Shown here: positions 217-16,123 of the stretch, piece after piece
Layout of the letters: each line of letters starts with the position of its first letter
Position numbering within the stretch: position 1 is the first letter of the stretch
Origin: a virus
Lineage: Duplodnaviria; Heunggongvirae; Uroviricota; Caudoviricetes
Virus record (IMG/VR): IMGVR_UViG_2558860288_000003
Coordinates: 1 to 16,123 of that record
Strand: one strand, 5' to 3'
Length of the DNA stretch: 16,123 nucleotides
Program-made: the position numbers and the translations under genes
Notes under the pieces: model-generated
The model's input: only the letters and a program-made list of their open reading frames with translations
Database searches by the model: none
Told to the model about the DNA's origin: nothing

Positions 217-219
217 GGA

Positions 220-420
220 TTACGCTCCGGTTTCGGCTGCGGCGGCGCTGAAATCACCAATCTGGATGTTTTCCACCAGTGCGGCGCAGCGGTAGTCCTC
301 AACCACATAGGCTTCATTAACGGATTCAAAGTTTTCAATCCGGTCACGTTTCGGGTTGTCGATAACTGAACGGCGGCGGGTGTCTTCCTGCCAGTAGATG
401 GACAGGTCAACGAAGCCGAC
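220..420 (-). pseudogene. Major capsid protein (P2 gpN family) C-terminal remnant of about 66 codons with no start codon
   Basis: The minus-strand frame that ends in TAA at 222-220 reads VGFVDLSIYWQEDTRRRSVIDNPKRDRIENFESVNEAYVVEDYRCAALVENIQIGDFSAAAAETGA. This resembles the remembered gpN C-terminus (LSIYY..RRVI.ENPK.DR.EN.ES.N..YVVEDY...LVE.I..GDFS). It is bounded upstream by an in-frame stop at 421-423, contains no Met, and its 5' end overlaps the terminase reading frame. Confidence 0.5.
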
Positions 421-528
421 TTAAACCCTAACGTCGCCAACCGCAACAAAGGCCCGCGCCGTCAGCCGGAAAAGAATGTCTTCACCGATGAACAGATTGA
501 GAAGCTGGAAGAAATCTTCCATTCCTCC

Positions 529-1866
529 ATGTTCAACTACCAGCGCCACTGGTGGGAAGCCGGAAAAACCAACCGCATCCGCAACCTGCTGAAGTCACGC
601 CAGATCGGCGCGACCTTCTATTTTGCCCGTGAAGCCCTGATTGACGCTCTGCTTACCGGACGTAACCAGATTTTTCTTTCCGCCAGCAAGGCACAGGCCC
701 ACGTCTTCAAACAGTACATCATCGACTTTGCCAAAGAAGTGGAGGTGGAGCTGAAAGGCGATCCGATGGTGCTTCCCAACGGGGCCACACTGTATTTCCT
801 CGGCACCAATGCCCGCACGGCCCAGAGTTACCACGGCAACCTGTATCTGGATGAATATTTCTGGATACCGAAATTCCAGGAGCTGCGCAAAGTGGCTTCT
901 GGTATGGCTATTCACAAGAAATGGCGACAAACCTATTTTTCCACGCCATCCAGCCTGACACACAGTGCTTATCCGTTCTGGTCCGGTGCACTGTTCAACC
1001 GTGGGCGCAACAAAGCCGATAAGGTGGACATCGACCTGTCCCACAGCAATCTGGCCCCCGGCCTGCTGTGCGCAGACGGGCAATACCGCCAGATAGTCAC
1101 CGTGGAAGATGCGGTGCGCGGCGGCTGCAACCTGTTCGACCTTGACCAGTTGCGCATGGAGTACAGCCCGGACGAATACCAGAACCTGCTGATGTGCGAG
1201 TTTGTGGACGATCTCGCGTCCGTGTTTCCGCTCAGCGAGCTGCAGGCGTGCATGGTGGACAGTTGGGAAGTCTGGACCGACTTTCATGCTCTGGCCCTGC
1301 GCCCGTTTGGCTGGCGCGAAGTGTGGATCGGTTATGACCCGGCAAAAGGTACGCAGAACGGCGACAGTGCCGGATGCGTGGTGGTGGCACCGCCAGCCGT
1401 GCCAGGCGGTAAGTTCCGCATTCTTGAGCGTCACCAGTGGCGCGGGATGGACTTCCGCGCCCAGGCTGACGCCATCAAAAAACTGACCGAACAGTACAAC
1501 GTGACATACATCGGCATCGACTCAACTGGCGTCGGCCACGGGGTTTACGAGAACGTGAAAGCATTCTTTCCTGCCGTCCGGGAGTTTGTCTACAACCCCA
1601 ACGTTAAAAACGCCCTGGTACTCAAGGCCTACGACATTATCAGCCACCGCCGTCTGGAGTTTGACGCCGGACACACCGACATAGCGCAGTCATTCATGGC
1701 AATCCGTCGCGCCACCACCGCCAGTGGCAACCGCCCGACCTATGAAGCCAGCCGCAGCGAAGAAGCCAGCCACGCCGATCTGGCCTGGGCAACGATGCAC
1801 GCACTGTTTAACGAACCGCTGCAGGGCGAATCCGCCAATACCAGCAATATTGTGGAGATTTTTTGA
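529..1866 (+). CDS. Terminase large (ATPase) subunit, P2 gpP family; apparently N-terminally truncated
   Basis: The 445-aa ORF contains WWEAGKTNRIRNLLKSRQIGATFYFAREA and an acidic-residue-rich nuclease-like C-terminal half typical of P2-type large terminases. The frame stays open upstream to a TGA at 367-369 with protein-like sequence (LNPNVANRNKGPRRQPEKNVFTDEQIEKLEEIFHSS) but no start codon. The stop TGA overlaps the portal ATG. Confidence 0.8.
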   Translation: MFNYQRHWWEAGKTNRIRNLLKSRQIGATFYFAREALIDALLTGRNQIFLSASKAQAHVFKQYIIDFAKEVEVELKGDPMVLPNGATLYFLGTNARTAQSYHGNLYLDEYFWIPKFQELRKVASGMAIHKKWRQTYFSTPSSLTHSAYPFWSGALFNRGRNKADKVDIDLSHSNLAPGLLCADGQYRQIVTVEDAVRGGCNLFDLDQLRMEYSPDEYQNLLMCEFVDDLASVFPLSELQACMVDSWEVWTDFHALALRPFGWREVWIGYDPAKGTQNGDSAGCVVVAPPAVPGGKFRILERHQWRGMDFRAQADAIKKLTEQYNVTYIGIDSTGVGHGVYENVKAFFPAVREFVYNPNVKNALVLKAYDIISHRRLEFDAGHTDIAQSFMAIRRATTASGNRPTYEASRSEEASHADLAWATMHALFNEPLQGESANTSNIVEIF

Positions 1867-2894
1867 TGGGAAAGAGTAAGAAGAACCGCGCTGCGGCGAC
1901 GAAACAGATCCAGCTTAAAAGTCAAACTACAGCCGAAGCATTCAGCTTCGGCGATCCCGTTCCTGTTCTGGACCGCCGTGAACTGCTGGACTATGTGGAA
2001 TGCGTACAGATGGATCGCTGGTATGAGCCGCCTGTGAGTTTCGACGGACTGGCGCGAACCTTCCGCGCCGCCGTGCATCACAGTTCACCAATTGCGGTGA
2101 AATGCAATATTCTGACCAGTACCTACATCCCTCACCCGCTGCTCAGCCAGCAGGCTTTTTCACGTTTTGTGCAGGACTATCTGGTATTTGGTAACGCCTA
2201 TCTGGAGAAACGCACGAACCGGTTCGGTGAAATTATCGCTCTTGAGCCTGCCCTGGCAAAATATACCCGACGCGGGTTAGACCTGGATACCTACTGGTTT
2301 GTGCAATACGGTATGACCACGCAACCGTATCAGTTCACGAAAGGCAGCATTTTTCATCTGATGGAACCAGATATCAACCAGGAGATCTACGGCCTGCCCG
2401 GTTATCTTTCTGCCATTCCGTCAGCCCTGCTCAACGAGTCCGCCACGCTGTTCCGCCGTAAGTATTACATCAACGGCAGCCATGCAGGCTTCATCATGTA
2501 CATGACCGACGCCGCGCAGAACCAGGAAGATGTAAACAATCTCCGTAACGCGATGAAAAGCGCCAAAGGTCCAGGCAACTTCCGCAACCTGTTTATGTAC
2601 TCGCCTAACGGCAAAAAAGACGGGCTTCAGATTATTCCTCTGTCAGAAGTCGCGGCAAAGGATGAATTTTTGAATATCAAGAACGTGAGCCGGGATGACA
2701 TGATGGCAGCACACCGAGTGCCGCCGCAAATGATGGGGATAATGCCGAATAATGTTGGGGGATTTGGGGATGTGGAGAAGGCTAGTAAGGTTTTTATGCG
2801 TAATGAATTGATACCGCTACAAAACAGAATAGAAGAACTCAATAAATGGCTCAAAGATGACATAATAAAATTCATGCCATACAGTTTCATATAA
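1866..2894 (+). CDS. Portal protein, P2 gpQ family
   Basis: The ORF is about 342 aa from the ATG at 1866 (the ORF track began at an in-frame TTG at 1863). Size and position immediately downstream of the terminase ATPase gene match the P2 P-Q operon, with a TGATG overlap and GGAG upstream. Confidence 0.8.
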   Translation: MGKSKKNRAAATKQIQLKSQTTAEAFSFGDPVPVLDRRELLDYVECVQMDRWYEPPVSFDGLARTFRAAVHHSSPIAVKCNILTSTYIPHPLLSQQAFSRFVQDYLVFGNAYLEKRTNRFGEIIALEPALAKYTRRGLDLDTYWFVQYGMTTQPYQFTKGSIFHLMEPDINQEIYGLPGYLSAIPSALLNESATLFRRKYYINGSHAGFIMYMTDAAQNQEDVNNLRNAMKSAKGPGNFRNLFMYSPNGKKDGLQIIPLSEVAAKDEFLNIKNVSRDDMMAAHRVPPQMMGIMPNNVGGFGDVEKASKVFMRNELIPLQNRIEELNKWLKDDIIKFMPYSFI

Positions 2895-2899
2895 AACTA

Positions 2900-2920
2900 A
2901 GGGCCGAATACCTCGGCCCT
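2900..2920. terminator. Stem-loop between the convergent portal gene and cargo gene X
   Basis: AGGGCCGA-ATACC-TCGGCCCT forms a perfect 8-bp stem with a 5-nt loop. On the minus strand it is followed by TTAGTTTTAT, so it is a plausible intrinsic terminator for gene X and possibly also for Q. Confidence 0.45.
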
Positions 2921-2925
2921 CTACA

Positions 2926-4131
2926 TTAAGATTTATGGCTAAAGAGTATACCTGTAACAGAACGTTGATAGGCATCAAGCTTCTCTTGCCTCTGCTTAAA
3001 TTTAGATTTGATATCACTAATACTCGGAATACCTATTACTCCAAGGCCTGCACTTAACGCCGTTAAAGTAGTATTGCCAGTCAGCGCTCCAGCAATTGCT
3101 ATAGCACCATTTGCGATACATGGTAGGACATCTAGTCCGTAAATTCTCAATTTCTCTTTTTGGGCTTTTGCAAGAATCCTTTGATGTTCAATAAAAGCCC
3201 GGTCTACATTATCAATTACTTTTTGCGTTGTCCTCGAAAAGCTCTCTGCCGAAGAATTGATTAAAGAGTCAACACCATTTGATAAGATGGATCTTACATC
3301 CTCCATCAATTTGTTACGTCTCAACTCAATTATTTTATTGACCGGTACATTTCCTAACCATGAAAAACCATCTTGCATACCAGCAGATAACGCATGAACC
3401 ATATGCAAATTTTTTAGTTCAATATCATTGACATCAAAATTAAGAGATTCGTACTCAATAAGCCAAGTATAATAGAGCCAAGATGTGTCTGCATTTATAT
3501 ATGGAGTACTACCAAGTTCTTGTGCATTACATTTTGCTGAATAGGCTTGCGGCATTCTTCCAATGCAGGAAAGGAAAACCTCCATTCCAGCATGATCACC
3601 AACAAGATTACGTGATATTCTTTTTTTATCAGATAGTAGTTTTTCTAATTGAGTTTTTGGATTTAGCCCCCATGCTGTATCAAAAATAAGTCTATCTGCT
3701 CTCTTAATATTTTTAAGAACAGCATCAATATCATTCATCGAATAACTAAAATCTCGAAATTCATCGTAGCTTTCGAACCGTCGATCATAGAGATATTGCG
3801 CATGAGTCAGAGCATAAGGCTCACAAAAACTCATCAAATTTTTTTTGCTCTCAGTTTCAAAATCTCTTCTATCCGGCAAAATTAATACTATTGCTGGCTC
3901 TATATCTTCAAGCGCTACTTCTTTATATGTCATACATGTTAGGACATGCTTCAGAAGTATCCTTGTAAACTCAGCCTTATCTGACTTTTCATAGAGACGA
4001 CCGACTCTTAATATAGGACATGGAAGTGAAATAGTATCAACATACAACCCTGCAATAGAGACAGCATTCTCATCAAATGCAGGAAATAAGTCACCAGAAA
4101 AATTAGCTTTAAACTGAGAACCATCCTGCAA
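2926..4131 (-). CDS. Uncharacterised protein, C-terminal ORF of split gene X (candidate defence / abortive-infection effector)
   Basis: The 401-codon ORF in the track starts at a TTG. The same frame stays open and protein-like for 40 more codons upstream, to a stop at 4252-4254 (SIKFFSQQEEYVKQIEDIFPELYNQVIEFWQVTSDIGVIH), with no ATG. The C-terminal region has a hydrophobic Gly/Ala-rich stretch (LPCIANGAIAIAGALTGNTTLTALSAGLGVIGIPSI). The gene is strongly AT-rich by eye. Confidence 0.6.
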   Translation of the reverse strand: MQDGSQFKANFSGDLFPAFDENAVSIAGLYVDTISLPCPILRVGRLYEKSDKAEFTRILLKHVLTCMTYKEVALEDIEPAIVLILPDRRDFETESKKNLMSFCEPYALTHAQYLYDRRFESYDEFRDFSYSMNDIDAVLKNIKRADRLIFDTAWGLNPKTQLEKLLSDKKRISRNLVGDHAGMEVFLSCIGRMPQAYSAKCNAQELGSTPYINADTSWLYYTWLIEYESLNFDVNDIELKNLHMVHALSAGMQDGFSWLGNVPVNKIIELRRNKLMEDVRSILSNGVDSLINSSAESFSRTTQKVIDNVDRAFIEHQRILAKAQKEKLRIYGLDVLPCIANGAIAIAGALTGNTTLTALSAGLGVIGIPSISDIKSKFKQRQEKLDAYQRSVTGILFSHKS

Positions 4132-4205
4132 ATGTATTACACCAATATCGGATGTTACCTGCCAAAACTCTATTACCTGATTATATAACTCAGGAAAAAT
4201 ATCTT

Positions 4206-4598
4206 CTATTTGCTTAACATATTCTTCTTGTTGAGAAAAAAACTTGATGCTTTATGTGGCGTTGCATTAGTTTTTTTCATCAGATAAAACAACTCGCCAA
4301 AATTACTAAAAAGAATATTAAAGTAAGAACTTTGCAAGTCCTGAATAGAGTATTTGTTTTTTATATCTTCTCTTTCTAAAAAGTGATTAACCGCTGCTCC
4401 CATAGCCCTTATTCTGCCATCAACAGTAGAAGGGTCAACTTTACCATCCTGTCGCAGCCTTATTCTTTTAAAACTTTCAATAAAACCTTCTACAAGATGA
4501 TGAGCTATTTTTAGTTTTCCCGCTTCCAGTTGTTGCTTAATGAGAAAAACACGCTCAGTTAAATCATCTACATATTCCTCATCTTGATATTTTTCCAT
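4206..4598 (-). CDS. Uncharacterised protein, N-terminal ORF of split gene X
   Basis: ATG at 4598 with a GGAG 5 nt upstream (ttaatGGAGcgtttATG). The 130-codon ORF ends shortly after a T7 homopolymer (plus-strand A7 at 4236-4242). One extra T would fuse it in frame to ORF 2926..4131. Confidence 0.55.
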   Translation of the reverse strand: MEKYQDEEYVDDLTERVFLIKQQLEAGKLKIAHHLVEGFIESFKRIRLRQDGKVDPSTVDGRIRAMGAAVNHFLEREDIKNKYSIQDLQSSYFNILFSNFGELFYLMKKTNATPHKASSFFLNKKNMLSK

Positions 4599-4706
4599 AA
4601 ACGCTCCATTAAAATATTTAATAATGCATATAAGAATAGTTAATAATATTTACAGTAACTATATCACATTAGATCCAGATTGTTACACTGTTGCGCGCGC
4701 TCGTAT
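4599..4706 (-). promoter_or_regulatory. AT-rich upstream region of gene X (putative promoter)
   Basis: About 100 bp of very AT-rich non-coding sequence immediately upstream of the gene X start, with several TATA-like hexamers. No -35/-10 pair could be assigned with confidence. Confidence 0.3.
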
Positions 4707-4718
4707 CCCCGCCACGCC
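4707..4718 (-). other. cos-like motif: GGCGTGGCGGGG on the minus strand, matching the first 12 nt of the 186 cohesive end as remembered
   Basis: The plus strand reads CCCCGCCACGCC. The remembered 19-nt cohesive ends are GGCGTGGCGGGGAAAGCAT (186) and GGCGAGGCGGGGAAAGCAC (P2). Here the first 12 nt match 186 exactly and 3 of the remaining 7 also match (about 15/19). Orientation and position (between the A/tum side and Q) fit a cos site. Confidence 0.4.
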
Positions 4719-4767
4719 TGCTCGCTTTGTGTAGTGGTTTTCATGCAGGTGCATGACATAAGCAAAA

Positions 4768-4787
4768 GCCCGCCAGAACTGGCGGGC
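4768..4787 (-). terminator. Hairpin GCCCGCC-AGAACT-GGCGGGC followed on the minus strand by TTTTGCTT
   Basis: Perfect 7-9 bp GC-rich inverted repeat. On the minus strand a T-run follows it, so it is a possible second terminator or structured element in the cos-proximal non-coding region. Confidence 0.35.
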
Positions 4788-5003
4788 CTGCATCAAAACG
4801 ATCCTCAAACGATCATGCGTTCTCATGCAGCATAGTCATGCACGGATGAGAGAAATGAATGCGCGTATCCAAATGCCCGTTTGAAAAACGCAGATGAACT
4901 AAAAAAGCTTAAGGTCTACTATGAGCGAGAAACGGACATTTAATTTTCGAGTAGTGGAAATCGAAGCCAGTACCTGCCGGAGCCATAGTATCGAAACCAC
5001 GAA

Positions 5004-5031
5004 CAATAAAAAGCCTGGAAATATCCAGGCT
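5004..5031 (-). terminator. Intrinsic terminator downstream of the qor-like gene
   Basis: Stem GCCTGGA / TCCAGGC (7-8 bp) with a 4-nt loop. On the minus strand it is followed by TTTTTATTG, and it lies about 37 nt past the qor stop. Confidence 0.55.
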
Positions 5032-5066
5032 GCGCAAGACTCATTTATAGAATGCTGCGGTAAGGA

Positions 5067-6059
5067 TTACTCAACGGTCACAACTATTTTGCCGACCTGT
5101 CCATTGGACTCCATATAGCGCTGGGCGTCTGCAATCTCTTCGAACGGGAACGTCTTATCGATGACCGGCTTCAGTTTGCCGACTCGCAAGCCTTCTGTGA
5201 TAAAGGATTTTGCGCGCGCCATTTTTTCAGAGTCCGTCGTGATTTCAAACAGCTCATATCCACGCAGGGTGAGATGCTTACCGAGAATATCAAATACAGG
5301 CACAAGCATGTCACGGCTATCGAGCGCGCCGTACTGGAAAAACATACCCTGTGGTGCCATCACCTGCGTCAGTTTTGCCACGTCCGGCCCACCGACGGGA
5401 TCAAAAACAATATGGGCACCTGCGCCATCTGTTGCACGACTGATTTCAGCAACCATATCCTGCTCCGCAGTAGCAATGACGGCGGCTGCGCCAGCTTTAA
5501 GGAGCATTTCGCTTTTTTCAGAGGTCCGTGTGAGTGCAATTGGGTTTGCACCCAGCATGTTAGCAATCTGTATGGCAGCCAGACCCACGCTGCTTGATGC
5601 TGCGCGGATCACGACATTCTGACCAGCCTGAAGGTTGCCATACTCAACCAGCGCACCATAAGCGGTGACATACATCATCCAGCTTGCGGCGGCTTCCTCG
5701 AATGAAAGGTTTTCAGGATGCTTTACGACAGCATGAACCGGTGCGTTGACCACTTCACCATACATGCCGTATTCATTAAACATAAATGAAGGGATCACGC
5801 TTACCCGATCTCCAGTGGTAAACTCATCTACATTCTCACCTACTGCCTGTACAACGCCGGCCGCTTCATAACCAAGACGTGCCGGAAATTCCGGCTCAAT
5901 AACATATTGGCCGTTGCGGTACATGATTTCTGCACGGTTGATACCTATCGCATGTACGCGGATCTGCACTTCACCCGCTGTCGGTGCAGGCACCTGCACA
6001 TCAACAACTTCCAGCACTTCCGGGCCACCGGTGCGGTTAAAGGTAATAACTTTAGACAT
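5067..6059 (-). CDS. NAD(P)H:quinone oxidoreductase-like enzyme (medium-chain dehydrogenase/reductase superfamily)
   Basis: The translation MSKVITFNRTGGPEVLEVVDVQVPAPTAGEVQIRVHAIGINRAEI... has the typical quinone-oxidoreductase N-terminus and a Rossmann-type glycine-rich segment (VVIRAASSSVGLAAIQIA). ATG at 6059 with a GAGAG SD; the track start at 6065 is a TTG. Confidence 0.85.
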   Translation of the reverse strand: MSKVITFNRTGGPEVLEVVDVQVPAPTAGEVQIRVHAIGINRAEIMYRNGQYVIEPEFPARLGYEAAGVVQAVGENVDEFTTGDRVSVIPSFMFNEYGMYGEVVNAPVHAVVKHPENLSFEEAAASWMMYVTAYGALVEYGNLQAGQNVVIRAASSSVGLAAIQIANMLGANPIALTRTSEKSEMLLKAGAAAVIATAEQDMVAEISRATDGAGAHIVFDPVGGPDVAKLTQVMAPQGMFFQYGALDSRDMLVPVFDILGKHLTLRGYELFEITTDSEKMARAKSFITEGLRVGKLKPVIDKTFPFEEIADAQRYMESNGQVGKIVVTVE

Positions 6060-6208
6060 ATTCAACTCTCTTCAGTTAAAGGCACACCTTCAGAATAATG
6101 CCGAAGGGATGCCCGAATCATTTGTGAACAATCTACGTTGTTACGAACACACCAGAAATAGCTGAGAGGGAACTTCAGTATTAATTATCCATTAACAATC
6201 CGCCTGCT

Positions 6209-7099
6209 TCAGCGGATCTGCGTGGCCAGAATATCACTGAACCAGTCGATAAAGACGCGCACTTTTGGAGAAAGGTAGCGCCTGTCGGGATACATCACTG
6301 ACACGGGCTTTGACACCGATGGGTATTGCGGCAGAATCTCTTCAAGAGCGCCGGAAGCAATATGGGGAGCAACGGCATCATAGGTAGCCTGGATAATGCC
6401 CAGACCAGCCAGAGCACAAGAAAGCAGAATATCGGAATTATCAACCAGCAGGCTGCCCGCAGGACGTAGCGAAACAATGCTCCCGTCTTCGATAAACTTC
6501 CATTCCATGACGTCACGACTGTGGTCGCTAAAAAAGTTAATTGCCCGATGTTTATCCAGATCCGCAAGTGTTTCTGGCCGCTCATGCTGCTGCAGGTAAG
6601 ACGGGGCTGCACAGGTAACCATCCGGATGTCACCAAGACGTCTGGATATAAAACTAGAATCTTGAAGCGCCCCCAGGCGGACAAGGCAATCTACGCCTTC
6701 CGTAATCAAATCAGTTTTTTTATCGGAAGAAACCAGCACAACTTCAATACCTGGATACAGTGCCTGAAAATGCCTGAGATTAGGGATCAATATGGAATGC
6801 GCCAGCGCCAGGGGCACATCAAGTCTCAGGCGTCCTCGCGGTGGAAGTGTCGGTGAAAAACTGGCCATCATGTCATTAACTTCGGCCAGAACATGCCTAG
6901 CATGATGATAGAACTCATCCCCTTCAGCAGTAACGCTCAGCTTTCGGGTTGTGCGATAAATGAGTTTTACACCCAGATCATGCTCTATCTGCTGTATCGC
7001 TTTGCTCACAGTGGGGCGATGAATCTGAAGTACATCAGCAGCTTTCGTGAAGCTACCCTGCTCAACAACCTGTATGAAAATATTTAGGTATTCAATCAT
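6209..7099 (-). CDS. LysR-family transcriptional regulator
   Basis: From the ATG at 7099 the protein starts MIEYLNIFIQVVEQGSFTKAADVLQIHRPTVSKAIQQIEHDLGVKLIYRTTR..., the canonical LysR-family N-terminal helix-turn-helix. The rest has a substrate-binding-domain-like size of about 296 aa. Confidence 0.85.
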   Translation of the reverse strand: MIEYLNIFIQVVEQGSFTKAADVLQIHRPTVSKAIQQIEHDLGVKLIYRTTRKLSVTAEGDEFYHHARHVLAEVNDMMASFSPTLPPRGRLRLDVPLALAHSILIPNLRHFQALYPGIEVVLVSSDKKTDLITEGVDCLVRLGALQDSSFISRRLGDIRMVTCAAPSYLQQHERPETLADLDKHRAINFFSDHSRDVMEWKFIEDGSIVSLRPAGSLLVDNSDILLSCALAGLGIIQATYDAVAPHIASGALEEILPQYPSVSKPVSVMYPDRRYLSPKVRVFIDWFSDILATQIR

Positions 7100-7333
7100 G
7101 TTGGCATGCACGTGCTCACCTGTTTTGTAGGCTGTTCAAAACCGACATTGTAAAGTAAACCATCCCAACGACATTATTTCTTTTCGTTCAGATAAGGGCT
7201 TTCTGACTGTCACAATGTCCACTTCTGGCACAAAGCGGACGACCATTTTCAAATGGCCGTCGCATCTAACACCTCGTTTCACTCATTGTTCAACCTTACC
7301 CCCATCAGAAGGAATTCTTTCGGGGGCAACGTT

Positions 7334-7567
7334 TCAGTGTAACCAGCTGTCGTCTTCCCAGACCTGCTGCAGAATTTCCATTACACGTTCCTTATCTTCA
7401 GCCTGTCTTACCCCGCTAAGTTCAATACCATTGGCGCTGCCCTTGCGGATTCGGATAGCTGTTTTTGGGTAGAGGGGGCGCAAATTTCGGTAAAGCTCGG
7501 ATTCAAGTGCTTCTAAAAGCATCTGGCTAATTTTCTGCTCTTTATCGATCATTATTTCAATGCGCAT
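7334..7567 (-). CDS. DinI-family protein (186 Tum C-terminal-domain-like)
   Basis: The 77-aa protein MRIEIMIDKEQKISQMLLEALESELYRNLRPLYPKTAIRIRKGSANGIELSGVRQAEDKERVMEILQQVWEDDSWLH aligns with E. coli DinI as remembered (MRIEVTIAK...ELSRR...VSVRYAAANNLSV...KEDKQRISEILQETWE). ATG at 7567 is preceded by AGGGGA. Confidence 0.75.
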   Translation of the reverse strand: MRIEIMIDKEQKISQMLLEALESELYRNLRPLYPKTAIRIRKGSANGIELSGVRQAEDKERVMEILQQVWEDDSWLH

Positions 7568-7577
7568 AGATTTTCCC

Positions 7578-7766
7578 CTAACAGGTAACGTCCATTGTTC
7601 GGCTGTATTCATGGTTGCGGATTTTCGCCATCAGCTCGTCAGTCAGCTCGGAAACCCACTGGATGGCCAGCCGCTTTTCTTCGTCGCTGCACTCGCTCGC
7701 CGCTACCAGTTTTATGAAAAAATCGATGCGCTGAAGTTTCAATGATTCCAAAAGATAATCCTGCAT
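7578..7766 (-). CDS. Small protein, first gene of the SOS operon (Tum N-terminal-like?)
   Basis: ATG at 7766 with a strong SD (taatAGGAGGgaaaATG); the track start at 7787 is a GTG. The 62-aa product is MQDYLLESLKLQRIDFFIKLVAASECSDEEKRLAIQWVSELTDELMAKIRNHEYSRTMDVTC. Its TAG stop lies 10 nt before the DinI-like ATG, suggesting coupling. Confidence 0.5.
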   Translation of the reverse strand: MQDYLLESLKLQRIDFFIKLVAASECSDEEKRLAIQWVSELTDELMAKIRNHEYSRTMDVTC

Positions 7767-7798
7767 TTTCCCTCCTATTACGGCCACTTACACAAGAT

Positions 7799-7833
7799 AA
7801 CTGTATGTATATACACTGTTTATATATACAGTA
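7799..7833 (-). promoter_or_regulatory. LexA operator(s) / SOS-regulated promoter of the tum-like operon
   Basis: cACTGTTTATATATACAGTA at 7814-7833 is a perfect CTGT-N8-ACAG core and matches 18/20 of the consensus TACTGTATATATATACAGTA. A weaker overlapping box at 7799-7818 (aACTGTATGTATATACACTG) has ACAC instead of ACAG. Both lie 35-65 nt upstream of the operon start. Confidence 0.7.
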
Positions 7834-7922
7834 TAGTACCGATTTCTAAATGTAAAACGCTTTTTTGGACTTCAATAAGAAAGCCCTGATATGAGTCAAA
7901 GACAGGAAATATTTTCGGTGTG

Positions 7923-10316
7923 TCAGTAATACTGCCGCCACTTGTCATCCTCACGCAGCCGCCCGTTCTGGTAAAAGATGCGCAGCCCTCCCCCTGACGG
8001 AAGGCTGCCGCCGCGTAAAAGTAAATTCACTTCATACTCACTGCCATCGAACCCTCTGGACCGCAACTCATACTCCAGCTGCAGGCGCTGCTGCTCAGAA
8101 ATATTCTGCTTGTATGCCTTTTTCCGTTTCGGTTTTACCAGCCTGAGCCGGGCAACCAGCTCCCGCCGTTCCTTTTTGCCCATGCCGTGCAGATAGTCCT
8201 GCAGCGCCTTTTCATCCATGGACGTGATACCCGTTACTTCCCCCCCTGTTTGGTTCAAATTTTCAACAGGGGGACAGTTATTGCCACGAGTCCAAGGGGC
8301 GCAAGCGCCCTGGTCGGCTGCCGCCTCCTGAACGTCAACGGCCTTACGAACCATTTTCCACTTCACGGCATGAGTGCAGATCTTGCCCTCTGCAATAGGT
8401 GACCAGATGCCATAAATACGAATGCCGTGATCGCCATAGGCGGTCGGCTCTTCGTTGATTTCATAAGCAGTTCTGATGAGGTGATATTTGCGGGGAACCA
8501 GTACGCCACCCTGCTTCATGATGTAGGTGGCAAAACAACCAGCATCAGCAGCAGCCAGAATGGCATCAAGGCGCGGGTTATCCAGTACCGGCGCACCTGC
8601 TTTTTTGTCCCCCTGTTGCCTTGCCGCCTGACCAGCCAGCAATCGCAGTTCACGGTAAGCCTGACGCCCCGGAATGCCAAAGAAGCGGAATTGCTGAACA
8701 CGATGCAGAGACGCCCAGGCATTAACGTATTCAGCATTATCACGCAGGGATTTCCCCGTTTCCTTGCTGATCTCGCCAGCCAGACCACGCCCGTCAATGT
8801 TCTTACTGATGTATTTCACGATGTAGCTAGTCGGCGTTCCTTTGCGCGGGTTTATCAGCTCAGACTTAAAGCGTGGCCCCGTGTTATTACCCAGCTCCTC
8901 GCGGTCTTCACGGATAGCAAACTTACGCAACAATGCAGTAATGGCGCGGCGGTCTTTTTTGCGCATGAAACACAACAGGTGCCAGTGAACTGTGCCGTCA
9001 TGATGCGGCTCAGCCACCCGCACGCCATACCAGCGCAACCCGGCTTTGTGCATCGCCTTACGAAATGCAGCAAACATGCCGACCAGATAATCACTGCTTT
9101 GTCTTACCGTCGCATTTGTCCAGGTCGGGTTGGGCCTGCCGTTATTTAGCGTGGAATGGAAACGTGACGGACAGGTGATGGTGTAGAAAACGGCGCAGTC
9201 ACCGCGCATTTCCGCGATAAGCTCCAGACCTTTAACACAGGCCATCATCTCATTGCGGCGATGCGCAGGGTTGCTGCTGCTGGCGTTTACCACATCCTCC
9301 ATGTCCAGCGTGTCGCCGTCTTCGTTCACCAGTTCATGAGAACGGAAAAACTCCAGCGACTTACGGCGCTGCTCACGTTTATGCATCACGGCTTCATAGC
9401 TGACATAGGGAGATGCTTTTTTGCTGACCAGGCAAACAGCACGCAACTGCTCTTCCCGCCATTCGCAACGCATCTTCCATAATTTCCGGTACCACCAATC
9501 GGCGCACAACATACGCGCCAGCGAACCCGGAATGAGTTCATAGGGCACGGGTTTACGGCGGTTTCTTTTCCGGCGGAGTTGCTCAAACGCAGGCGGTATG
9601 ACATCCAGTCGCAGGGTTTCTGCTGCCACCTTTTCCCATGTCTTGCGGATTTCTTCTGGCTTAACATCATCGGTGGCGTACAAATCACCACAAGCGGCAT
9701 CAAGACACATACTCATATGCGCAGCGACAAGAGTAGACAGGCGTTTCACCTGATCCTGACTCATTTCAGGCAAGATCAGCAGGCCGTCCAGCCCTTCATG
9801 GCTTGCCATAAAGCGAAAAGAAGTGGATAGCTGACTGTCGCGTACATGCTCCAGTCGTTCCAGACATGGCTTAATCGTCTCACGCAAATAGCGGGAATAA
9901 GCCTTTGGCCTGCCCAGGCTGCTGAAGTATTCAATACGTTGCATCAGCGGCTTGCTGATATGGGAAGGCTGGGCGTTAACGTCCGCCAGTATGACCATGT
10001 CCGGATTAAAACGCTGCTGCTCATGCGCCAGCTTTGCCCGGCTAATAAGCTTATCCTGCTCCATTTCGCGCTGGACAGGATCACGGGATTCATTAAAGAA
10101 ATAACGCTCCCAGACCTGATCACTCAGTGCCTCGCGGCGCAGTTGTTCCTGCTCGTTATCGGCAGCGTACAGAGTGATCAGGTTTGAAAGCGCAGAAACC
10201 GGCGCAACTTCCGCCGGGTCCAGATAAGGGTTAATAGCCTTTTTCGGGCTGTTCCATGAGAATGCTGCGGCGGCCTCGTTAAAGCCGCTGCAGTTGTTCA
10301 TATCAGCATGGCTCAT
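7923..10316 (-). CDS. Replication initiation protein, P2 gpA family (rolling-circle HUH endonuclease)
   Basis: The 797-aa protein contains a His-hydrophobic-His motif ([11 protein letters not shown]) and sits at the P2 gene A position downstream of the early genes. Its start overlaps the dam stop (ATGA). Confidence 0.85.
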
Positions 10317-11170
10317 GCACGCACTCCGTACACGGCAGAACTATCCACGCCACGCGAAGAATCAAATCCCACCCAGCAGCGTGCCCCAGAAACAGCGATG
10401 ATTTCTGTTGCAGATTTACTCTCACCAGCTGCTACGCCGATGCTGCGTTTTGCCTTGATGTAGTGGTGAGTAAAATTGCGATACAGCGAACGGATCAGGG
10501 ATGTGTCACTGTTAGAAACAATGACCGGATGTCCTTCTGATGACCGATGTTCAAGAACGGATGCCAGGTGATACTGGTCATCTTCAGTGAAACCATCAGT
10601 GTGATAGCCGGAAAACGTACCGTCATACGGCGGATCGCAATACACCACATCCCCCGCCTTCAACATCGCCAGCGTTTCATCAAAGCTGGCGCAGATAAAC
10701 GTTGCTCGCTGGGCCTTTTCTGCAAATGCGCGAATTTCTTTTTCAGGGAAATACGGATTTTTATAATTACCGTAGGGAATGTTGAAATGCCCGCTCTTGT
10801 TATAGCTACATAAACCACGGTAACCGTGACGATTGAGATACAGGAAATATACCGCTTTCATGAAATCAGTAATTTCAGTTGAGTAATTAAACTCCTGCCT
10901 TATGTTGTAATAAGCCACCTCCCTGTTTGCGATCTCAAATAAAACTCTGGCGCGAGATATAAACGATTCACAATCAGCAGCAACCTTTTTATAGAGGTTG
11001 ATTAAATCAGGATTAATATCCGCAACAAGATAGCTGGGGTAATCCGTCTCCATCATCACAGCACAGGAACCCGCGAAAGGTTCAACCAGTCGCGGGCCAG
11101 CAGGAAGATGTTTTTTCAGTTCGGACATAATGGTAGTTTTATTACCCGCCCATTTCAGGATGGTGCTCAT
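10313..11170 (-). CDS. DNA adenine methyltransferase (Dam-like, GATC-type N6-adenine MTase)
   Basis: From the ATG at 11170 the protein starts [62 protein letters not shown]... and contains a DPPY catalytic motif ([12 protein letters not shown]). SD AGGAGG; the track start at 11242 lies inside the upstream gene. Confidence 0.85.
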
Positions 11171-11469
11171 ACAGCACCTCCTGCAATAACATATCCTAAA
11201 GCTTCTAATGGGGTTAATGGGCGAATTGATAGCATCACCCATTGTTCTGAAACTGCCATGACGTCATTAACCGGAAGCACATGAGAGATAACAGCGGCCC
11301 ATTCCCTACCCGTAAATACGCCATGCTTCCATTCGCAAAGAGAAAGAACATCACCAACTTTATAGCCACGATCGTCTTTACGAAGTTCAGCCGTCTTTTG
11401 ACCTGCAACCACAGCGTTGAAATACTTAGGTGCAATTTTTAATTGATGGATACGCACTGCCCTTGTCAT
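11167..11469 (-). CDS. Small early protein, ASCH / DUF3850-like
   Basis: From the ATG at 11469 the 100-aa protein starts [41 protein letters not shown].... SD GGAGG. It has ATGA overlaps with both neighbours. Confidence 0.55.
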
Positions 11470-11693
11470 ACAGCACCTCCGTTGTAATGTTTGCCTTTCA
11501 GCTCTACGATTTCCTGGCAGGTAATGCAAAGCTGCACTCCCGGAATGGCGCGGCGTCGTGCTGGCGGAATTGGCGCTTCACATTCAATACAAAGCACGCG
11601 AGACACGCCCGGTGTTTTGGCACGGGCAGCACGAATATGGCGCTGGCGTTCTTCTTCAACGCGCTGCTGTACGAGATCCATTGCATCAGCCAT
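11466..11693 (-). CDS. TraR/DksA-family C4 zinc-finger protein
   Basis: The 75-aa protein has a Cys-x2-Cys ... Cys-x2-Cys arrangement (CIECEAPIP...LCITCQ), typical of the small TraR-like zinc-finger proteins in P2-family early operons. Confidence 0.7.
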
Positions 11694-11926
11694 TAGTGGA
11701 TCTCCTGCGCTTCGTTCTGGATTGCTTCAGCAGTTACACGCAGCAGTTCTGCCGCTTCGACGTGGTTTAGCTGGCGGGATGTGATATGACACGCCAGGCT
11801 ATCAAGGCGAGCTGCCATTGCTTCAGCCCTTGCCCGGCGTTCTTCCAGACGAGCCTCTGTCAGTAAAATATTAAGCCCTGCGTCATCCGGTCCGGTTTTA
11901 GTCGAGAGGGTTTCAATATTACGCAT
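11693..11926 (-). CDS. Hypothetical early protein (small, helical)
   Basis: ATG at 11926 with SD AGGAGA. The 77-aa product is rich in Ala/Arg/Glu. Its stop overlaps the next start (TAATG). Confidence 0.45.
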   Translation of the reverse strand: MRNIETLSTKTGPDDAGLNILLTEARLEERRARAEAMAARLDSLACHITSRQLNHVEAAELLRVTAEAIQNEAQEIH

Positions 11927-11993
11927 AATCAATTCTCCTGAATTTAGATAAAGGGATGCCCGGCGGGTTTACGCCATTAATTTCATTAGTTGG

Positions 11994-12335
11994 TTAATTC
12001 GGCATGGTTAGCCGTCTGGGAAATAAGCTCACCACTGCACGAAAATGATTCATTGCTTTAATCAACTCCCGCTTTTCGTCAGTGGTCAGCTCATTAATGC
12101 TGATGCTATGACGTTCAGCTGGAATTTTTGCCATAAAGAATATGGCAGCCAGTGCCCGTTTATTTTGTTCGCTATTAATATCGCGTGGATCACGCATATC
12201 TTTAATAAACCGCTCAAGCTCTGACTCAATATTCAGACCAAAAACTTTCGCCCTTAACTCCGCAATGTGATTAAGTCCATTCAGGCGTTGACCGGGGCTT
12301 AATGGAACAGTCGCCGCAGCGCCTTCAATAGCCAT
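11994..12335 (-). CDS. Hypothetical early protein (at the 186 dhr position)
   Basis: ATG at 12335 with SD GGGGGA. The 113-aa ORF overlaps the upstream fil-like ORF by 37 nt in another frame. Confidence 0.45.
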   Translation of the reverse strand: MAIEGAAATVPLSPGQRLNGLNHIAELRAKVFGLNIESELERFIKDMRDPRDINSEQNKRALAAIFFMAKIPAERHSISINELTTDEKRELIKAMNHFRAVVSLFPRRLTMPN

Positions 12336-12499
12336 TTGTTCCCCCGTTTTTTCGTAGATAGTTCTGCCAGCAATTCATCTTGTGAACGGCACGGATGCCA
12401 GCGTTTACCATCCTCACCCATGATCCAGCCGTGACCGTAGTGCATTGCCGGGCTTTGTTTAACCAGCAGCGATGCAAATGATGGTTCTTTCGTAAGCAT
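12299..12499 (-). CDS. Small early protein, possibly Fil-like
   Basis: ATG at 12499 with SD GAGGTG; the 66-aa product is MLTKEPSFASLLVKQSPAMHYGHGWIMGEDGKRWHPCRSQDELLAELSTKKRGNK.... The position immediately after cII matches fil in 186. The family assignment is from memory only. Confidence 0.4.
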   Translation of the reverse strand: MLTKEPSFASLLVKQSPAMHYGHGWIMGEDGKRWHPCRSQDELLAELSTKKRGNKWLLKALRRLFH

Positions 12500-12506
12500 A
12501 AGCACC

Positions 12507-13016
12507 TCACAGCAAACCGAATGAAGCACCAAGGCCAGTCATGGTATCAACTGCACTCGCCATCGCCGGGTTAGCCTGTAAACGGGCCTGCAATGAAACA
12601 GCAGCCAGCGCCATCAGTCGTGTTACAGAGTTAATGCTGCTGATAGCATCACGACGACCTGCACTGGTTTTTACATTGCCAGATACCGCACCTGCAGCAA
12701 CACGCCCGATCTCTGCGGTTGCACTCATGACGTAATGCGGCAGTTTCTCTTTTGCTACCTCATTAATCGGTACACATGGCAGGCAGTGAATCTGTGCCAG
12801 AAAACCATCTATCAGCGTTGAATCTTCAGTCAGATCGGTAAGCAGCCAGATTTCTGGCGCATTGAGCTGATGCGGTTGATCTGGGTTGAGTTTGTTTCGC
12901 AGAGTCTGGACATTCATTCCTGCACGTTCTGCCAGCTTCGCCATATTGTGACGAAGTGCAAAAGCTCTACAGGCTTCATCAAAATGCGGGTGTTTGGAAA
13001 TCTTATAATCAAACAT
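12507..13016 (-). CDS. cII: CII-like lysogeny establishment regulator (186 CII family)
   Basis: The 169-aa protein MFDYKISKHPHFDEACRAFALRHNMAKLAERAGMNVQTLRNKLNPDQPHQLNAPEIWLLTDLTEDSTLIDGFLAQIHCLPCVPINE... has the same length and the same start as 186 CII as remembered. SD AAGGGGG. Confidence 0.8.
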   Translation of the reverse strand: MFDYKISKHPHFDEACRAFALRHNMAKLAERAGMNVQTLRNKLNPDQPHQLNAPEIWLLTDLTEDSTLIDGFLAQIHCLPCVPINEVAKEKLPHYVMSATAEIGRVAAGAVSGNVKTSAGRRDAISSINSVTRLMALAAVSLQARLQANPAMASAVDTMTGLGASFGLL

Positions 13017-13048
13017 GCTACCCCCTTAGAAAGTTCTCATAATTGAAC

Positions 13049-13291
13049 TTACTTACCAACAATGACGCGGAAGTTGGAATGACCGAGGGATTCACGGACC
13101 TGATCGGTTTTGTACATTAAATAACGCAGGCTTACGCGGCCTTTGTTTTTTTCTTTCTTGACCATGTATTTAGCAAGCTGACCATGGTGAATTTTTTGAT
13201 ACACGGAGCCGCGGGAGATACCTTCCCATTCCGCGAACTCTGCAGGCGTAGCCATCTCTTTTGGTACACGAATTGAAATATCAGTACTCAT
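13049..13291 (-). CDS. Apl/Cox-like excisionase-repressor, first gene of the lytic operon
   Basis: 80-aa basic protein, divergent from cI and immediately upstream of cII. It has a helix-turn-helix-like segment (ATPAEFAEWEGISRGSVYQKIHHGQL). Confidence 0.6.
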   Translation of the reverse strand: MSTDISIRVPKEMATPAEFAEWEGISRGSVYQKIHHGQLAKYMVKKEKNKGRVSLRYLMYKTDQVRESLGHSNFRVIVGK

Positions 13292-13407
13292 AGTGCAGTA
13301 TCTCTTAGTTTGGTTTCGTTTTATCTTGTTTTATGTGGTTTGGTTTTGCTTTTCAAACCATAAATGGATATTGGGATCACTTTTTATATACGTCAAGGGG
13401 TTTGATT
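13292..13407. promoter_or_regulatory. Divergent lytic/lysogenic promoter-operator switch region
   Basis: 116-bp AT-rich intergenic region between the divergent apl-like and cI-like genes. It has repeated TTTGGTTT motifs (around 13310 and 13339) and an inverted repeat GGTTT-N8-AAACC around 13340-13357. Confidence 0.5.
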
Positions 13408-14040
13408 ATGAGTTTGATCAAGGCGGGAAATGATAGTGGTGGGCGCGATGCAATTAACAGGCTTATTAAGGCTTACAACTTCAGCTCACGACAGCAGCTC
13501 TGCGAACATCTGGAGGTATCCAAAAGCACTATGGCTAACAGATACTTAAGGGATAGCTTTCCTGCCGAATGGGTAATTCAATGTGCCCTTGAAACAGGAG
13601 CTTCCCTTCTATGGCTGGCTACTGGTCAAGGAGATATGTATGCGTGTGAGAACGAAGAAACAAATCTCAAAAATGAACCTCCCGTCACTGTAAGACCACT
13701 TTCTAAGATCGTTGCTCCTAGCATCAAACGTGTTGAACTGAAGAACGGCGAACTGCAGGCAAGTGATGAAATTCTTCTTGATAGCAGCCTGCTCGATGGT
13801 GACTCATCCAACGCTTTATTTGTTAAAACAGCTAATAATAGCTTTGTAGTGGATACGTCCGTTAAACAAGTCAGTAATGGCTTCTGGTTAGTCGATATGG
13901 ACGGAGTTAAAAGCATCGTCAAAATTGCGCGCATACCCGGAAACAAAATAGTAGTTAACCAAGATGACACTTCATTTGAATGTTCTGTAGATGATGTGGA
14001 AGTCGTAGGACGTGCAGTCAAAGTAATCAAGAACCTCTAA
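13408..14040 (+). CDS. cI: CI-like immunity repressor (186 CI type)
   Basis: ATG at 13408 with SD AAGGGG (the track start at 13333 has no SD and a non-protein-like leader). The 210-aa protein has an N-terminal DNA-binding-like region, sits divergent from apl/cII and lies directly upstream of int. Confidence 0.75.
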   Translation: MSLIKAGNDSGGRDAINRLIKAYNFSSRQQLCEHLEVSKSTMANRYLRDSFPAEWVIQCALETGASLLWLATGQGDMYACENEETNLKNEPPVTVRPLSKIVAPSIKRVELKNGELQASDEILLDSSLLDGDSSNALFVKTANNSFVVDTSVKQVSNGFWLVDMDGVKSIVKIARIPGNKIVVNQDDTSFECSVDDVEVVGRAVKVIKNL

Positions 14041-14043
14041 CTT

Positions 14044-15060
14044 ATGACCATCAGAAAACAGCCGAACGGAAAATGGTTGTGTGAGTGCTATCCCAATGGA
14101 CGCAATGGTAAGCGCGTGCGTAAGCAATTTGCTACCAAAGGCGAAGCCATTGCATTTGAAAGCTTCACCATGGACGAAGTAAACAAAAAGCCATGGCTTG
14201 GTGAGAAGGAAGATCGGCGGCGATTATCAGAAGTGATTGAGCAGTGGTATTCCCTATATGGTCAAACACTCGCAGACCCCAAACGCCTGATGGCGAAACT
14301 TAGAATTATCTGTAATGGTCTAGGCGATCCCATCGCCTCTGAGCTGACAGCAGGTGATTTCACAAAATATCGGGAAGCCAGATTAAAGGGGGAGGTCCAA
14401 AATGAAGACGGCTCGTTCATGTCACCCGTTAAACCTCGCACAGTTAATCTTGAGCAGCGTAACCTGTCATCGGTGTTCGGTACATTGAAAAAACTAGGGC
14501 ACTGGTCCGCACCAAACCCGCTGGCAGGGCTTCCAACCTTCAAAATTGCTGAAGGTGAATTGGCTTTTCTTTCCACGGACGAAATCAAACGCCTGCTTAA
14601 TGCCTGCGCCGAATCTCAAAACACCAGCCTACTAATGATTGCAAAAATATGCCTGGCTACTGGTGCGCGATGGAGTGAAGCAGAAAACTTGCAGGGCCAT
14701 CAGTTATCAAAATACCGGATCACCTATACCAAGACAAAAGGTAAGAAAAATCGTACCGTGCCGATATCTCAAAATCTGTATGATGAACTCCCCAAGAACA
14801 GAGGGAAACTATTCACACCGTGCAGAAAAGCCTTTGAACGAGCAGTAAAGCGAGCAGGCATCGAGCTACCAGAGGGCCAATGCACCCACGTGCTGCGTCA
14901 TACATTCGCCAGTCATTTTATGATGAATGGCGGGAATATTCTTGTCCTTAAAGAAATATTGGGCCATGCCGATATAAAAATGACGATGGTTTACGCACAC
15001 TTTTCTCCAGACCATCTAGAAGATGCTGTTACAAAAAATCCTTTACATAATTTGGTTTAA
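14044..15060 (+). CDS. int: Tyrosine integrase, P2/186 family
   Basis: The 338-aa protein starts MTIRKQPNGKWLCECYPNGRNGKRVRKQFATKGEAIAFESF..., typical of P2-family integrases. The C-terminal catalytic region has HVLRHTFASHF and a Tyr in MVYAHF. Confidence 0.9.
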   Translation: MTIRKQPNGKWLCECYPNGRNGKRVRKQFATKGEAIAFESFTMDEVNKKPWLGEKEDRRRLSEVIEQWYSLYGQTLADPKRLMAKLRIICNGLGDPIASELTAGDFTKYREARLKGEVQNEDGSFMSPVKPRTVNLEQRNLSSVFGTLKKLGHWSAPNPLAGLPTFKIAEGELAFLSTDEIKRLLNACAESQNTSLLMIAKICLATGARWSEAENLQGHQLSKYRITYTKTKGKKNRTVPISQNLYDELPKNRGKLFTPCRKAFERAVKRAGIELPEGQCTHVLRHTFASHFMMNGGNILVLKEILGHADIKMTMVYAHFSPDHLEDAVTKNPLHNLV

Positions 15061-15065
15061 TAGAA

Positions 15066-16123
15066 TGAAAAAAAAGCTCACATTAATCATTACCTACGCA
15101 ATCATTACTATCTTAATTGCCTTAGCATTGATATACACTAATCGTCCAAGAGTTTTTATCTTCTTTAGTGTAGCTTATATACTTGGATTGATACTTATGT
15201 TCTATTGCTTCAATTGGCTTAAACTAAATGAGAAAAATCTATTAAAACAACCATTATTCATAGCATCTATTATCGTACCGTTAAAAATGTTTGTTTTGTA
15301 TGGCCTCTGGGCTTGGAAAGGCCACGATTTAAATTTCACATCAGACGGTTTTAATCACTTTCTTGACATCTCTAAATTGCCATTATTTATTTTAGCTTCT
15401 TCGGTACCTCTTGCAGCAATCGTCAACAATATACATAGAACCACACAAACAGAGAACCAAATAGAAAAAACACAAAAGCAAATCAATCTTGTTATTGAAA
15501 AAAACACCACTGATTCATATTACTCACATCTGAAAAGCTTCGCTGACATATTCCAAACACTACCAACATTTAAATTATCAAGATTAAATAAAGAAACTAG
15601 TGATATAGACAGTATTGAACTATCTGTAGTTCATCCGTACACTCTTTATAAAAATATTTTCAAATCATCTTCCATTGATAATGGCTATAGCACCGTTGTC
15701 GAAGAAGATTTTATTCGAAAAACAACAAATCATTATAACAACATAAACAAATCGCTTAAGTCCAACAACAAAAATCATGACGACCAATTAGTTAGCCTAC
15801 AACTCATAGAATCAAACATAATTCAACTTTGCAGACTACTTGGAATTGATTATAAATACCAAGAACATCTTTTCTCAATAATTCTTGAACATCCAAAACC
15901 AGATACGGAAGCCATAAGCATCTCATTCAATGATGAAAAACAACTAAAGCAAATGCTTTGGGGACTAAGAAATATTCTCATTGAGTTATATGTTTTAATC
16001 GACAAGGACCCCTCTATCTTCCAAACAGGTAAAAGCAATGGTGATTACATACCTGAGTACGCACTATATGACGAAAAACTCTTTACAAGCATTTTACCTA
16101 TATCAAATGACCAGCGCATTTAA
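15066..16123 (+). CDS. AT-rich uncharacterised membrane protein (four predicted N-terminal TM helices plus a soluble domain of about 220 aa)
   Basis: Complete ORF of 352 aa from the ATG at 15066 (alternative ATG at 15023 overlaps the int 3' end); it ends in TAA at the window edge. Four hydrophobic segments (LTLIITYAIITILIALALIY, VFIFFSVAYILGLILMFYCF, LFIASIIVPLKMFVLYGLWAW, LPLFILASSVPLAAIV) precede a hydrophilic Asn/Lys-rich domain. Codon usage is very AT-rich. Confidence 0.6.

Follow-up and report, generated by a model that had tools for sequence, protein, structure and literature searches.

The window analysed here is a stretch of 16,123 nucleotides (positions 1 to 16,123 of IMG/VR record IMGVR_UViG_2558860288_000003), and the Pfam gene identifications show it to be a 186/P2-like (Peduoviridae) prophage. 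The gene under study, called gene X below, and its product X, are found at the right end of the window behind the repressor and integrase genes. The main features are:

529-1866, + strand: terminase (Pfam)
1863-2894, + strand: portal (Pfam)
2926-4598, - strand: two AT-rich genes just after portal
5067-7111, - strand: quinone oxidoreductase and LysR regulator genes
7923-10316, - strand: replication protein A (Pfam)
10313-11242, - strand: Dam methylase (Pfam)
13333-14040, + strand: 186-type CI repressor (Pfam Phage_CI_repr 9.9e-33, Phage_CI_C 6.5e-40), first gene of the rightward CI-Int-X string
14044-15060, + strand: tyrosine integrase of the ssrA-targeting lineage (Pfam Int_N 1.6e-28, Phage_integrase 7e-25)
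15061-15064, + strand: 4-nt gap separating the int stop from the gene X ATG; neither a terminator- nor a promoter-like site was seen on this strand (sequence, scan)
15065-16123, + strand: gene X, encoding a predicted inner-membrane protein of 352 aa that belongs to an unannotated family (PHROG 17460)

The TAA stop codon of gene X (16121-16123) is the final codon of the window. An earlier reading of this DNA, made from the sequence only, had described a 352-aa open reading frame directly downstream of the integrase and ending at the last base of the window, and this is what we found. However, that reading placed the start at 15066 and counted 6 nt between the two genes; the ATG is at 15065, and only 4 nt separate it from the int stop codon (TAA, 15058-15060). 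A second in-frame ATG lies upstream at 15023, within int. Because the homologues align from an MK(K/I/V)K start and not from the ATG at 15023, position 15065 is likely the true start. No obvious Shine-Dalgarno sequence precedes it.

With a GC content of 0.318 (GC3 0.30), gene X is much more AT-rich than int (0.46), gene A (0.54) and terminase (0.57), in agreement with the sequence-only reading. The Asn/Lys-rich C-terminal domain described there was also recovered: the C-terminal part of X is enriched in K (8.4%) and N (7.9%), with I, L and S also abundant, as expected for AT-rich coding DNA. A sigma-70-like site lies antisense inside the gene (15849-15878, - strand; TTGAGA-18-TATAAT, 11 of 12 matches). 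It is probably a chance occurrence in AT-rich DNA, because such sites are less frequent in the region as a whole than in shuffled versions of it.

Among 1.84 billion representative proteins, a profile search retrieved 918 clusters of X relatives with E<=1e-3, of which 454 reached E<=1e-10 (clusters at 50% identity), with members mostly of 320-400 aa. This family size, together with pairwise dN/dS values of 0.12-0.32 over the whole protein, confirmed that gene X is not a chance reading frame. The dN/dS values indicate that X is a functional protein under purifying selection; they were below 1 everywhere, and no positive selection was seen by this pairwise measure. A word-indexed search returned 52 relatives from Escherichia, Klebsiella, Raoultella, Enterobacter, Cedecea, Salmonella, Citrobacter, Lelliottia, Kosakonia and Dickeya, every one of them annotated as "hypothetical".

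The sequence-only reading recognised no family signature in X, and the domain searches bore this out. Pfam and NCBIfam scans gave nothing real, and a PADLOC v2 scan gave no match at E<=0.1. An NCBIfam match to RoaM was noise, scoring 18 bits against a cutoff of 400. The only match was to PHROG 17460 (E=2.4e-48, 166 bits, aa 32-267), which has no functional annotation and covers only the core and the beginning of the C-terminal domain of X. When 76 + 10 family members were scanned against Pfam, only scattered sub-threshold matches appeared, apart from a Longin_2 match in one member (28.5 bits against a cutoff of 27.3) that we treated as spurious, since only part of the profile was covered. Searches at the DNA level reached less far. 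Megablast of gene X against the phage collection found nothing, and blastn at a distant setting with the conserved core returned only two known E. coli alleles and one fragment, so that divergent alleles cannot be counted by DNA search. A profile scan of genome contigs yielded 5 loci only. A literature search on the RefSeq accessions of the family and the PHROG identifier found no papers. The protein family is new, and the type of locus in which it resides has already been published as a minor P2 hotspot (PMC13586616).

The hydropathy profile of X contains four hydrophobic helices, near aa 5-24, 28-48, 63-84 and 102-121. In an AlphaFold2 model based on 42 homologues (mean pLDDT 79.3, pTM 0.59), there are helices at 2-24, 28-48 and 63-84 and one long helix at 94-163, followed by an alpha/beta domain. 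The two methods agree with each other and with the four N-terminal TM helices proposed earlier. The MKKK sequence at the N-terminus and the distribution of charges in the loops make an N-in/C-in topology in the inner membrane likely under the positive-inside rule. The modeled fold had no match in PDB or BFVD, so that the profile and structure searches suggested by the sequence-only reading yielded PHROG 17460 and nothing else. Combining the model with the family alignment, X can be divided into the following segments:

15077-15208, + strand: variable module formed by the TM1-TM2 hairpin (aa ~5-48; mean pairwise identity 0.24)
15209-15463, + strand: conserved core (aa 49-133; mean pairwise identity 0.63, dN/dS <=0.05)
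15428-15553, + strand: predicted "stalk" helix (aa 122-163), with TM4 extended into the cytoplasm (AlphaFold2 helix 94-163, block pLDDT 77-94; mean pairwise identity 0.39)
15560-16120, + strand: hypervariable alpha/beta C-terminal domain (aa 166-352), predicted to be cytoplasmic (mean pairwise identity 0.21)

The core consists of a cytoplasmic loop (W51, L54, L59, Q62), TM3, a short periplasmic loop (G95, F99) and TM4 with P106 and P115. It contains 23 invariant residues, including W51, Q62, P72, G80, W84, G95, F99, P106 and P115, as well as the string N122-x-H124-R125-T126-x-Q128-...-Q132. The latter belongs to a juxtamembrane motif, NNIHRTTQTENQI in X and NNIHRTIQTExQI in the family form, in which N122, H124, R125, T126, Q128 and Q132 do not vary. 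Conserved residues of the stalk are K146, N147, D150, H155 and K157, and past the core three more positions are invariant (N147, K157 and P191). The TM1-TM2 hairpin is missing or cut to a single helix in some alleles.

The core and the C-terminal domain have separate histories. Their pairwise identities are essentially uncorrelated (Spearman rho 0.09): family members P0013 and P0052 are 86% identical in the core and 16% in the C-terminal domain, whereas P0008 and P0011 are 61% identical in the core and 71% in the C-terminal domain. The modules of X have therefore been recombined. The pairwise dN/dS of the C-terminal domain is 0.13-0.44. Whole alleles also move. The X profile found 71 IMG/VR loci, of which about 65 retain the same gene order, with cII and Apl pointing leftward and then CI, Int and X pointing rightward. 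In these loci Int is mostly 90-96% identical to that of the window, whereas the identity of X ranges from 99% down to 31%, and Int remains at 90-96% across the loci where X drops to 31-48%. Conversely, X of the window and of locus L019 differ by a dS of only 0.04, while the adjacent int genes differ by a dS of 1.2. The near-constant Int beside divergent X, and the opposite pattern in L019, imply that X alleles move among prophages independently of the integrase.

Because the window ends at the gene X stop codon, we extended it with the sequence of E. coli KE58, a 99.9% match across int and X. In KE58, ATGTAGGAATTTCGGACGCGGGTTCAACTCCCGCCAGCTCCACCA, the 3' end of ssrA (tmRNA), begins about 120 nt beyond the stop codon, and the att core corresponds to the last ~45 nt of ssrA. 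In E. coli BE2-5, a complete ssrA lies at the ogr end of a prophage remnant and a partial copy follows X; in locus L002, both copies of the ssrA core flank a prophage remnant. A 40-nt ssrA 3' core recurs about 100-200 nt after X-family genes in 32 fetched loci, and gene X is therefore inside the prophage, between int and att. The rightward extension that the sequence-only reading had proposed thus located both the att core and the insertion target, the ssrA 3' end, and its description of gene X as attachment-side cargo holds, as the gene is flanked by the int stop on one side and by the att arm and core on the other.

These data bear directly on the possibility that X is a host gene at the prophage junction, or a spurious AT-rich reading frame. 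The position of the window end at the X stop codon, with the att site beyond it, would fit such an origin. The att core downstream of X in the 32 loci refutes it, as do the family size and the purifying selection described above. In addition, of 5,426 complete E. coli genomes, a DNA search found only 12-13 with gene X, in each case beside this integrase, so that X is not the conserved core chromosomal gene that would have overturned the sequence-only reading. We regard a host or spurious origin as practically negligible.

A junction alignment defined the borders of the cargo. In cargo-free prophages, the int stop is followed directly by ATGGCGRCAnnnTGGCGRCAG, about 95 nt and then the core; in cargo-bearing prophages, the cargo sits exactly between the int stop and this repeat, which we infer to represent the Int arm-type sites of attP. 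In locus L006 of Klebsiella aerogenes (8740-13128), the att core at ssrA is followed by another integrase together with a retron Ec48-type system (RVT_1 + Retron_Ec48_antiviral), so that defence-bearing mobile elements stack in tandem at ssrA.

At least 80 IMG/VR loci encode an integrase 90-100% identical to that of the window, which we used as the anchor for a census of the int-att slot. The census covered the best 80 of at least 597 loci (Int >=90% identical to that of the window); the loci were not dereplicated, and the proportions are rough. The slot contained:

22 of 80 loci: 414-aa protein family, the most frequent occupant
21 of 80 loci: X-family gene, in two of these with the 514-aa protein too
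15 of 80 loci: empty, with 137 nt from int to the att core
8 of 80 loci: 514-aa protein
3 of 80 loci: dCTP deaminase (PADLOC dCTPase, 2.2e-146)
2 of 80 loci: 222-aa membrane protein
2 of 80 loci: dCTP-deaminase-like + ThyX pair
1 of 80 loci: other content
6 of 80 loci: uninformative, the contig stopping too soon after int

X is thus optional, exchangeable cargo in a variable int-att slot, and a known defence gene, the dCTP deaminase, occupies the same position in sister prophages; in E. coli CV839-06 the slot gene is annotated as "anti-phage dCTP deaminase" by RefSeq. Cassettes can also be stacked, as both X+414-aa and X+514-aa combinations were found, the former in Klebsiella aerogenes and Citrobacter. 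A 397-aa reading frame after X in Klebsiella aerogenes was considered as a paralog or obligate partner of X and rejected, since it belongs to the 414-aa cassette family, which is usually solitary. No conserved partner gene of X was found; its neighbours are int and att, or independent cassettes.

The other occupants can be described briefly. The 397-414-aa family (L134 7013-8263; L004 7184-8377; L011 about 6204-7352) has no Pfam or PADLOC match; we take its GLPCLYLGSS...WQE stretch to be reminiscent of RES-domain toxins, although the Pfam scan was negative. Examples of the 514-aa, 222-aa and ThyX-pair occupants are found at L113 7014-8555, L148 7025-7693 and L162 7029-8608, respectively. The 222-aa protein has multiple TM helices, and the pair found in two loci combines a dCTP-deaminase/dUTPase-like protein with a C-terminal TM helix and a ThyX thymidylate synthase. 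In E. coli EC96 (locus L088, 1502-3806), ISKpn26 is inserted at the 3' end of int and the X homologue is split into reading frames of 441 and 591 nt, which looks like decay of slot cargo.

A survey of P2-like prophages published in 2026 found 3% of the recognised P2 defence systems between int and att and proposed this position as a minor hotspot (PMC13586616). X lies in exactly that position, in a slot that is likewise variable, sometimes empty and filled by dCTP deaminase in sister prophages. The survey counts recognised systems, and we did not find the X family described there; here, the limits of the slot are resolved to the base, and its commonest occupants (the X, 414-aa and 514-aa families) are unannotated. 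In the same survey, 6 of 8 randomly chosen unknown loci from P4-satellite hotspots protected against phages (PMC13586616).

The lysogenic promoter of phage 186 drives both cI and int. X lies on the same strand as CI and Int, behind a gap of only 4 nt; a scan detected no terminator- or promoter-like sites between the three genes on their strand, and a simple scan found no promoter for X within the 3' end of int. Judging from this gene order, the lysogen probably produces X from the transcript of the repressor and integrase genes. The AT-rich DNA of gene X may be silenced by H-NS, which counts against lysogenic expression.

The position of X between int and the attP arm repeats, and its probable cotranscription with cI and int, would also suit a role in the phage life cycle or in prophage maintenance, for example as a modulator of integration, excision or induction, or as an addiction-type toxin. 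However, the slot is empty in 15 of the 74 informative prophages (Int >=90%) or is filled with unrelated genes, and X must therefore be dispensable for the phage lineage. There is no conserved antitoxin-like partner, and the family also occurs in elements with unrelated recombination machinery, as described below. Such a role for X is thus very improbable.

Members of the X family were found in several other genomic contexts. Another P2-like phage (locus L083, 4851-6991) carries tandem X paralogs of 347 and 366 aa between portal and gene A, the second identified by hhalign (E=7e-36); the two genes overlap by 4 nt, an arrangement which suggests that family members may act pairwise or confer two specificities. 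The portal-gene A region is the canonical P2 tin/old defence hotspot (PMC9519451). In Vibrio cyclitrophicus, PM2-like (Vinavirales) prophages have a gene for a distant X-like protein of 358 aa; this gene starts 1 nt after a LexA-like repressor gene and is the last in the element. Its product has a core of TM4, HR..QT..QI and stalk (hhalign probability 97%). Eight such elements were matched, an example being L010 12824-14506 from Vibrio phage 10N.286.54.C7_PE001, a tailless, corticovirus-type phage. Furthermore, a full-length member adjoins umuDC in Pseudomonas chlororaphis (5e-89), and another lies within an ICE-like island in Dickeya. The portal-A hotspot, the Dickeya island, the umuDC neighbourhood and the tailless Vibrio prophages all argue against a life-cycle function. 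The X family is cargo of mobile elements, twice independently tied to a lysogeny operon and twice to P2 hotspots.

The window has a second cargo region of its own, in the P2 portal-replication hotspot. The two AT-rich genes just after portal (2926-4598, - strand) encode proteins of 401 aa (GC 0.36) and 130 aa (GC 0.33); the former matches the PADLOC candidate DitB (1.9e-10), and the latter has only a marginal Avs1c-like match (0.011). The sequence-only reading likened the composition of the 352-aa gene to that of a "gene X", by which it probably meant this pair, and suggested a common low-GC donor pool for both; the GC contents, 0.32 against 0.33-0.36, are similar, as a comparison of composition only. 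Between this AT-rich cargo and gene A lie two genes of normal GC content (5067-7111, - strand). One encodes a 332-aa NAD(P)H quinone oxidoreductase of the PIG3 type and the other a YafC/AaeR-like LysR regulator of 300 aa, and the pair is 99.7% identical to E. coli G3/10. As the oxidoreductase/LysR pair matches G3/10 and the AT-rich pair matches other strains, the portal-A hotspot of the window is a mosaic that also holds metabolic cargo.

Prophage edges near int and att classically hold lysogenic-conversion genes, such as gtrABC and oac, and X could accordingly be cargo unrelated to defence that alters the host envelope, transport, stress response or colonisation to the benefit of the lysogen. 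The metabolic and regulatory cargo in the other hotspot of the window is in keeping with this, as is the lack of any direct link of X to phages. However, X has no similarity to Gtr, Oac or any transporter or enzyme family, and Pfam scans of X and 85 family members found no GtrA, glycosyltransferase or Acyl_transf_3 domains. The extreme allelic divergence and module shuffling beside a near-constant integrase are the pattern of a conflict gene, and known defence genes are found both in the int-att slot and in the other P2 hotspot. We therefore consider a conversion function rather improbable.

The reading that we prefer, and to which we give an even chance of being correct, is that X is a single-protein anti-phage factor acting by abortive infection, with a variable cytoplasmic domain for specificity and a conserved membrane effector. 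The prophage integrates at the ssrA 3' end and carries X as optional cargo, bounded by the int stop on one side and the first arm-type repeat of attP on the other; under this model, X would be produced in the lysogen from the cI-int transcript. The variable cytoplasmic domain would recognise a component of a superinfecting phage and so set the specificity, and the conserved TM3-loop-TM4 unit would act as the effector, compromising the integrity or energisation of the membrane and leading to abortive infection. The location in the slot, the exchange of cassettes, the modularity of X, the second P2 hotspot and the Vibrio repressor link point in this direction. The absence of positive selection in pairwise dN/dS counts against an anti-phage function, and X resembles no known defence, exclusion or channel protein in sequence or fold. 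In addition, inference from location is weak for any single gene, and the portal-A hotspot of the window also holds an oxidoreductase and a LysR regulator.

Several known prophage systems provide comparisons for X. P22 SieA, T4 Imm and HK97 gp15 block phage DNA entry at the inner membrane, and X might similarly exclude related phages without killing the host, with its variable parts tracking the ejection or tape-measure proteins of the targets. X is predicted to lie in the inner membrane, is encoded by a temperate phage and sits in the lysogeny gene string. SieA is carried by 22 of 66 P22-like phages in three types that are about 25% identical (PMC10883804). Like SieA, X is an optional prophage protein of very divergent types at one fixed locus, the SieA types being <30% identical, and SieA resembles it further in being an inner-membrane protein of 3-4 TM helices (PMC10883804) with a small conserved motif on the cytoplasmic side. 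The variable TM1-TM2 hairpin of X would also fit exclusion. However, X belongs to another phage family (186/P2-like) and another locus, the SieA locus of P22-like phages being flanked by homologues of gene 16 and gene 9. It has no sequence similarity to SieA, lacks the motif FxRYPxEAxxFNK and is about twice as long as SieA and the other known injection blockers. Moreover, most of the variable mass of X is in a predicted cytoplasmic domain of ~190 aa, away from the DNA conduit, and its sole periplasmic loop is short and conserved. These two features favour a modular abortive-infection protein over a SieA-like block, which we consider unlikely.

In genomic logic, X resembles lambda RexB, a four-TM inner-membrane effector that is transcribed beside the prophage repressor in AT-rich cargo DNA and works with RexA. 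The proposed scheme, in which a sensor triggers a membrane effector, is also shared. However, Rex consists of two proteins, and X would join sensor and effector in one chain. PADLOC, Pfam and fold comparisons found no RexB homology in X, and no RexA-like partner is conserved next to it. X also resembles P2 tin/old/fun and the systems of the Q-A hotspot (Rousset 2022, PMC9122126; Vassallo 2022, PMC9519451) in being lysogen-borne, AT-rich, swappable cargo of P2-like phages, and X paralogs are present in the Q-A (portal-replication) hotspot of another phage. PD-T7-4 often overlaps an integrase gene (Vassallo et al., PMC9519451); X matches no PADLOC v2 system model, and that library should include PD-T7-4.

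A more far-reaching form of the abortive-infection proposal, which we advance only tentatively, is that X is the founding example of a one-chain membrane immune family with a novel fold. In this family, a TM3-TM4/NNIHRTIQTExQI effector would be combined with interchangeable cytoplasmic sensors, recombined at the conserved motif, and the arrangement would be common to P2-like, PM2-like Vibrio and ICE-like elements.

Taken as a whole, the data make X a well-supported and easily testable candidate defence gene. If X is not a defence protein, it is still a common membrane protein specific to lysogens of E. coli and Klebsiella. For a very common ssrA-integrating prophage lineage of Enterobacteriaceae, the int-att slot is now defined to the base, and its unannotated occupants (X, the 414-aa, 514-aa and 222-aa proteins and the DCD-like+ThyX pair) form a short candidate list for the discovery of defence systems. 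If X does function in defence or exclusion, it would add a widespread, structurally unprecedented single-gene family to the immune repertoire of prophages, and its natural domain swaps, with the same core and different C-terminal domains or the reverse, would represent a ready-made experiment for mapping defence specificity.
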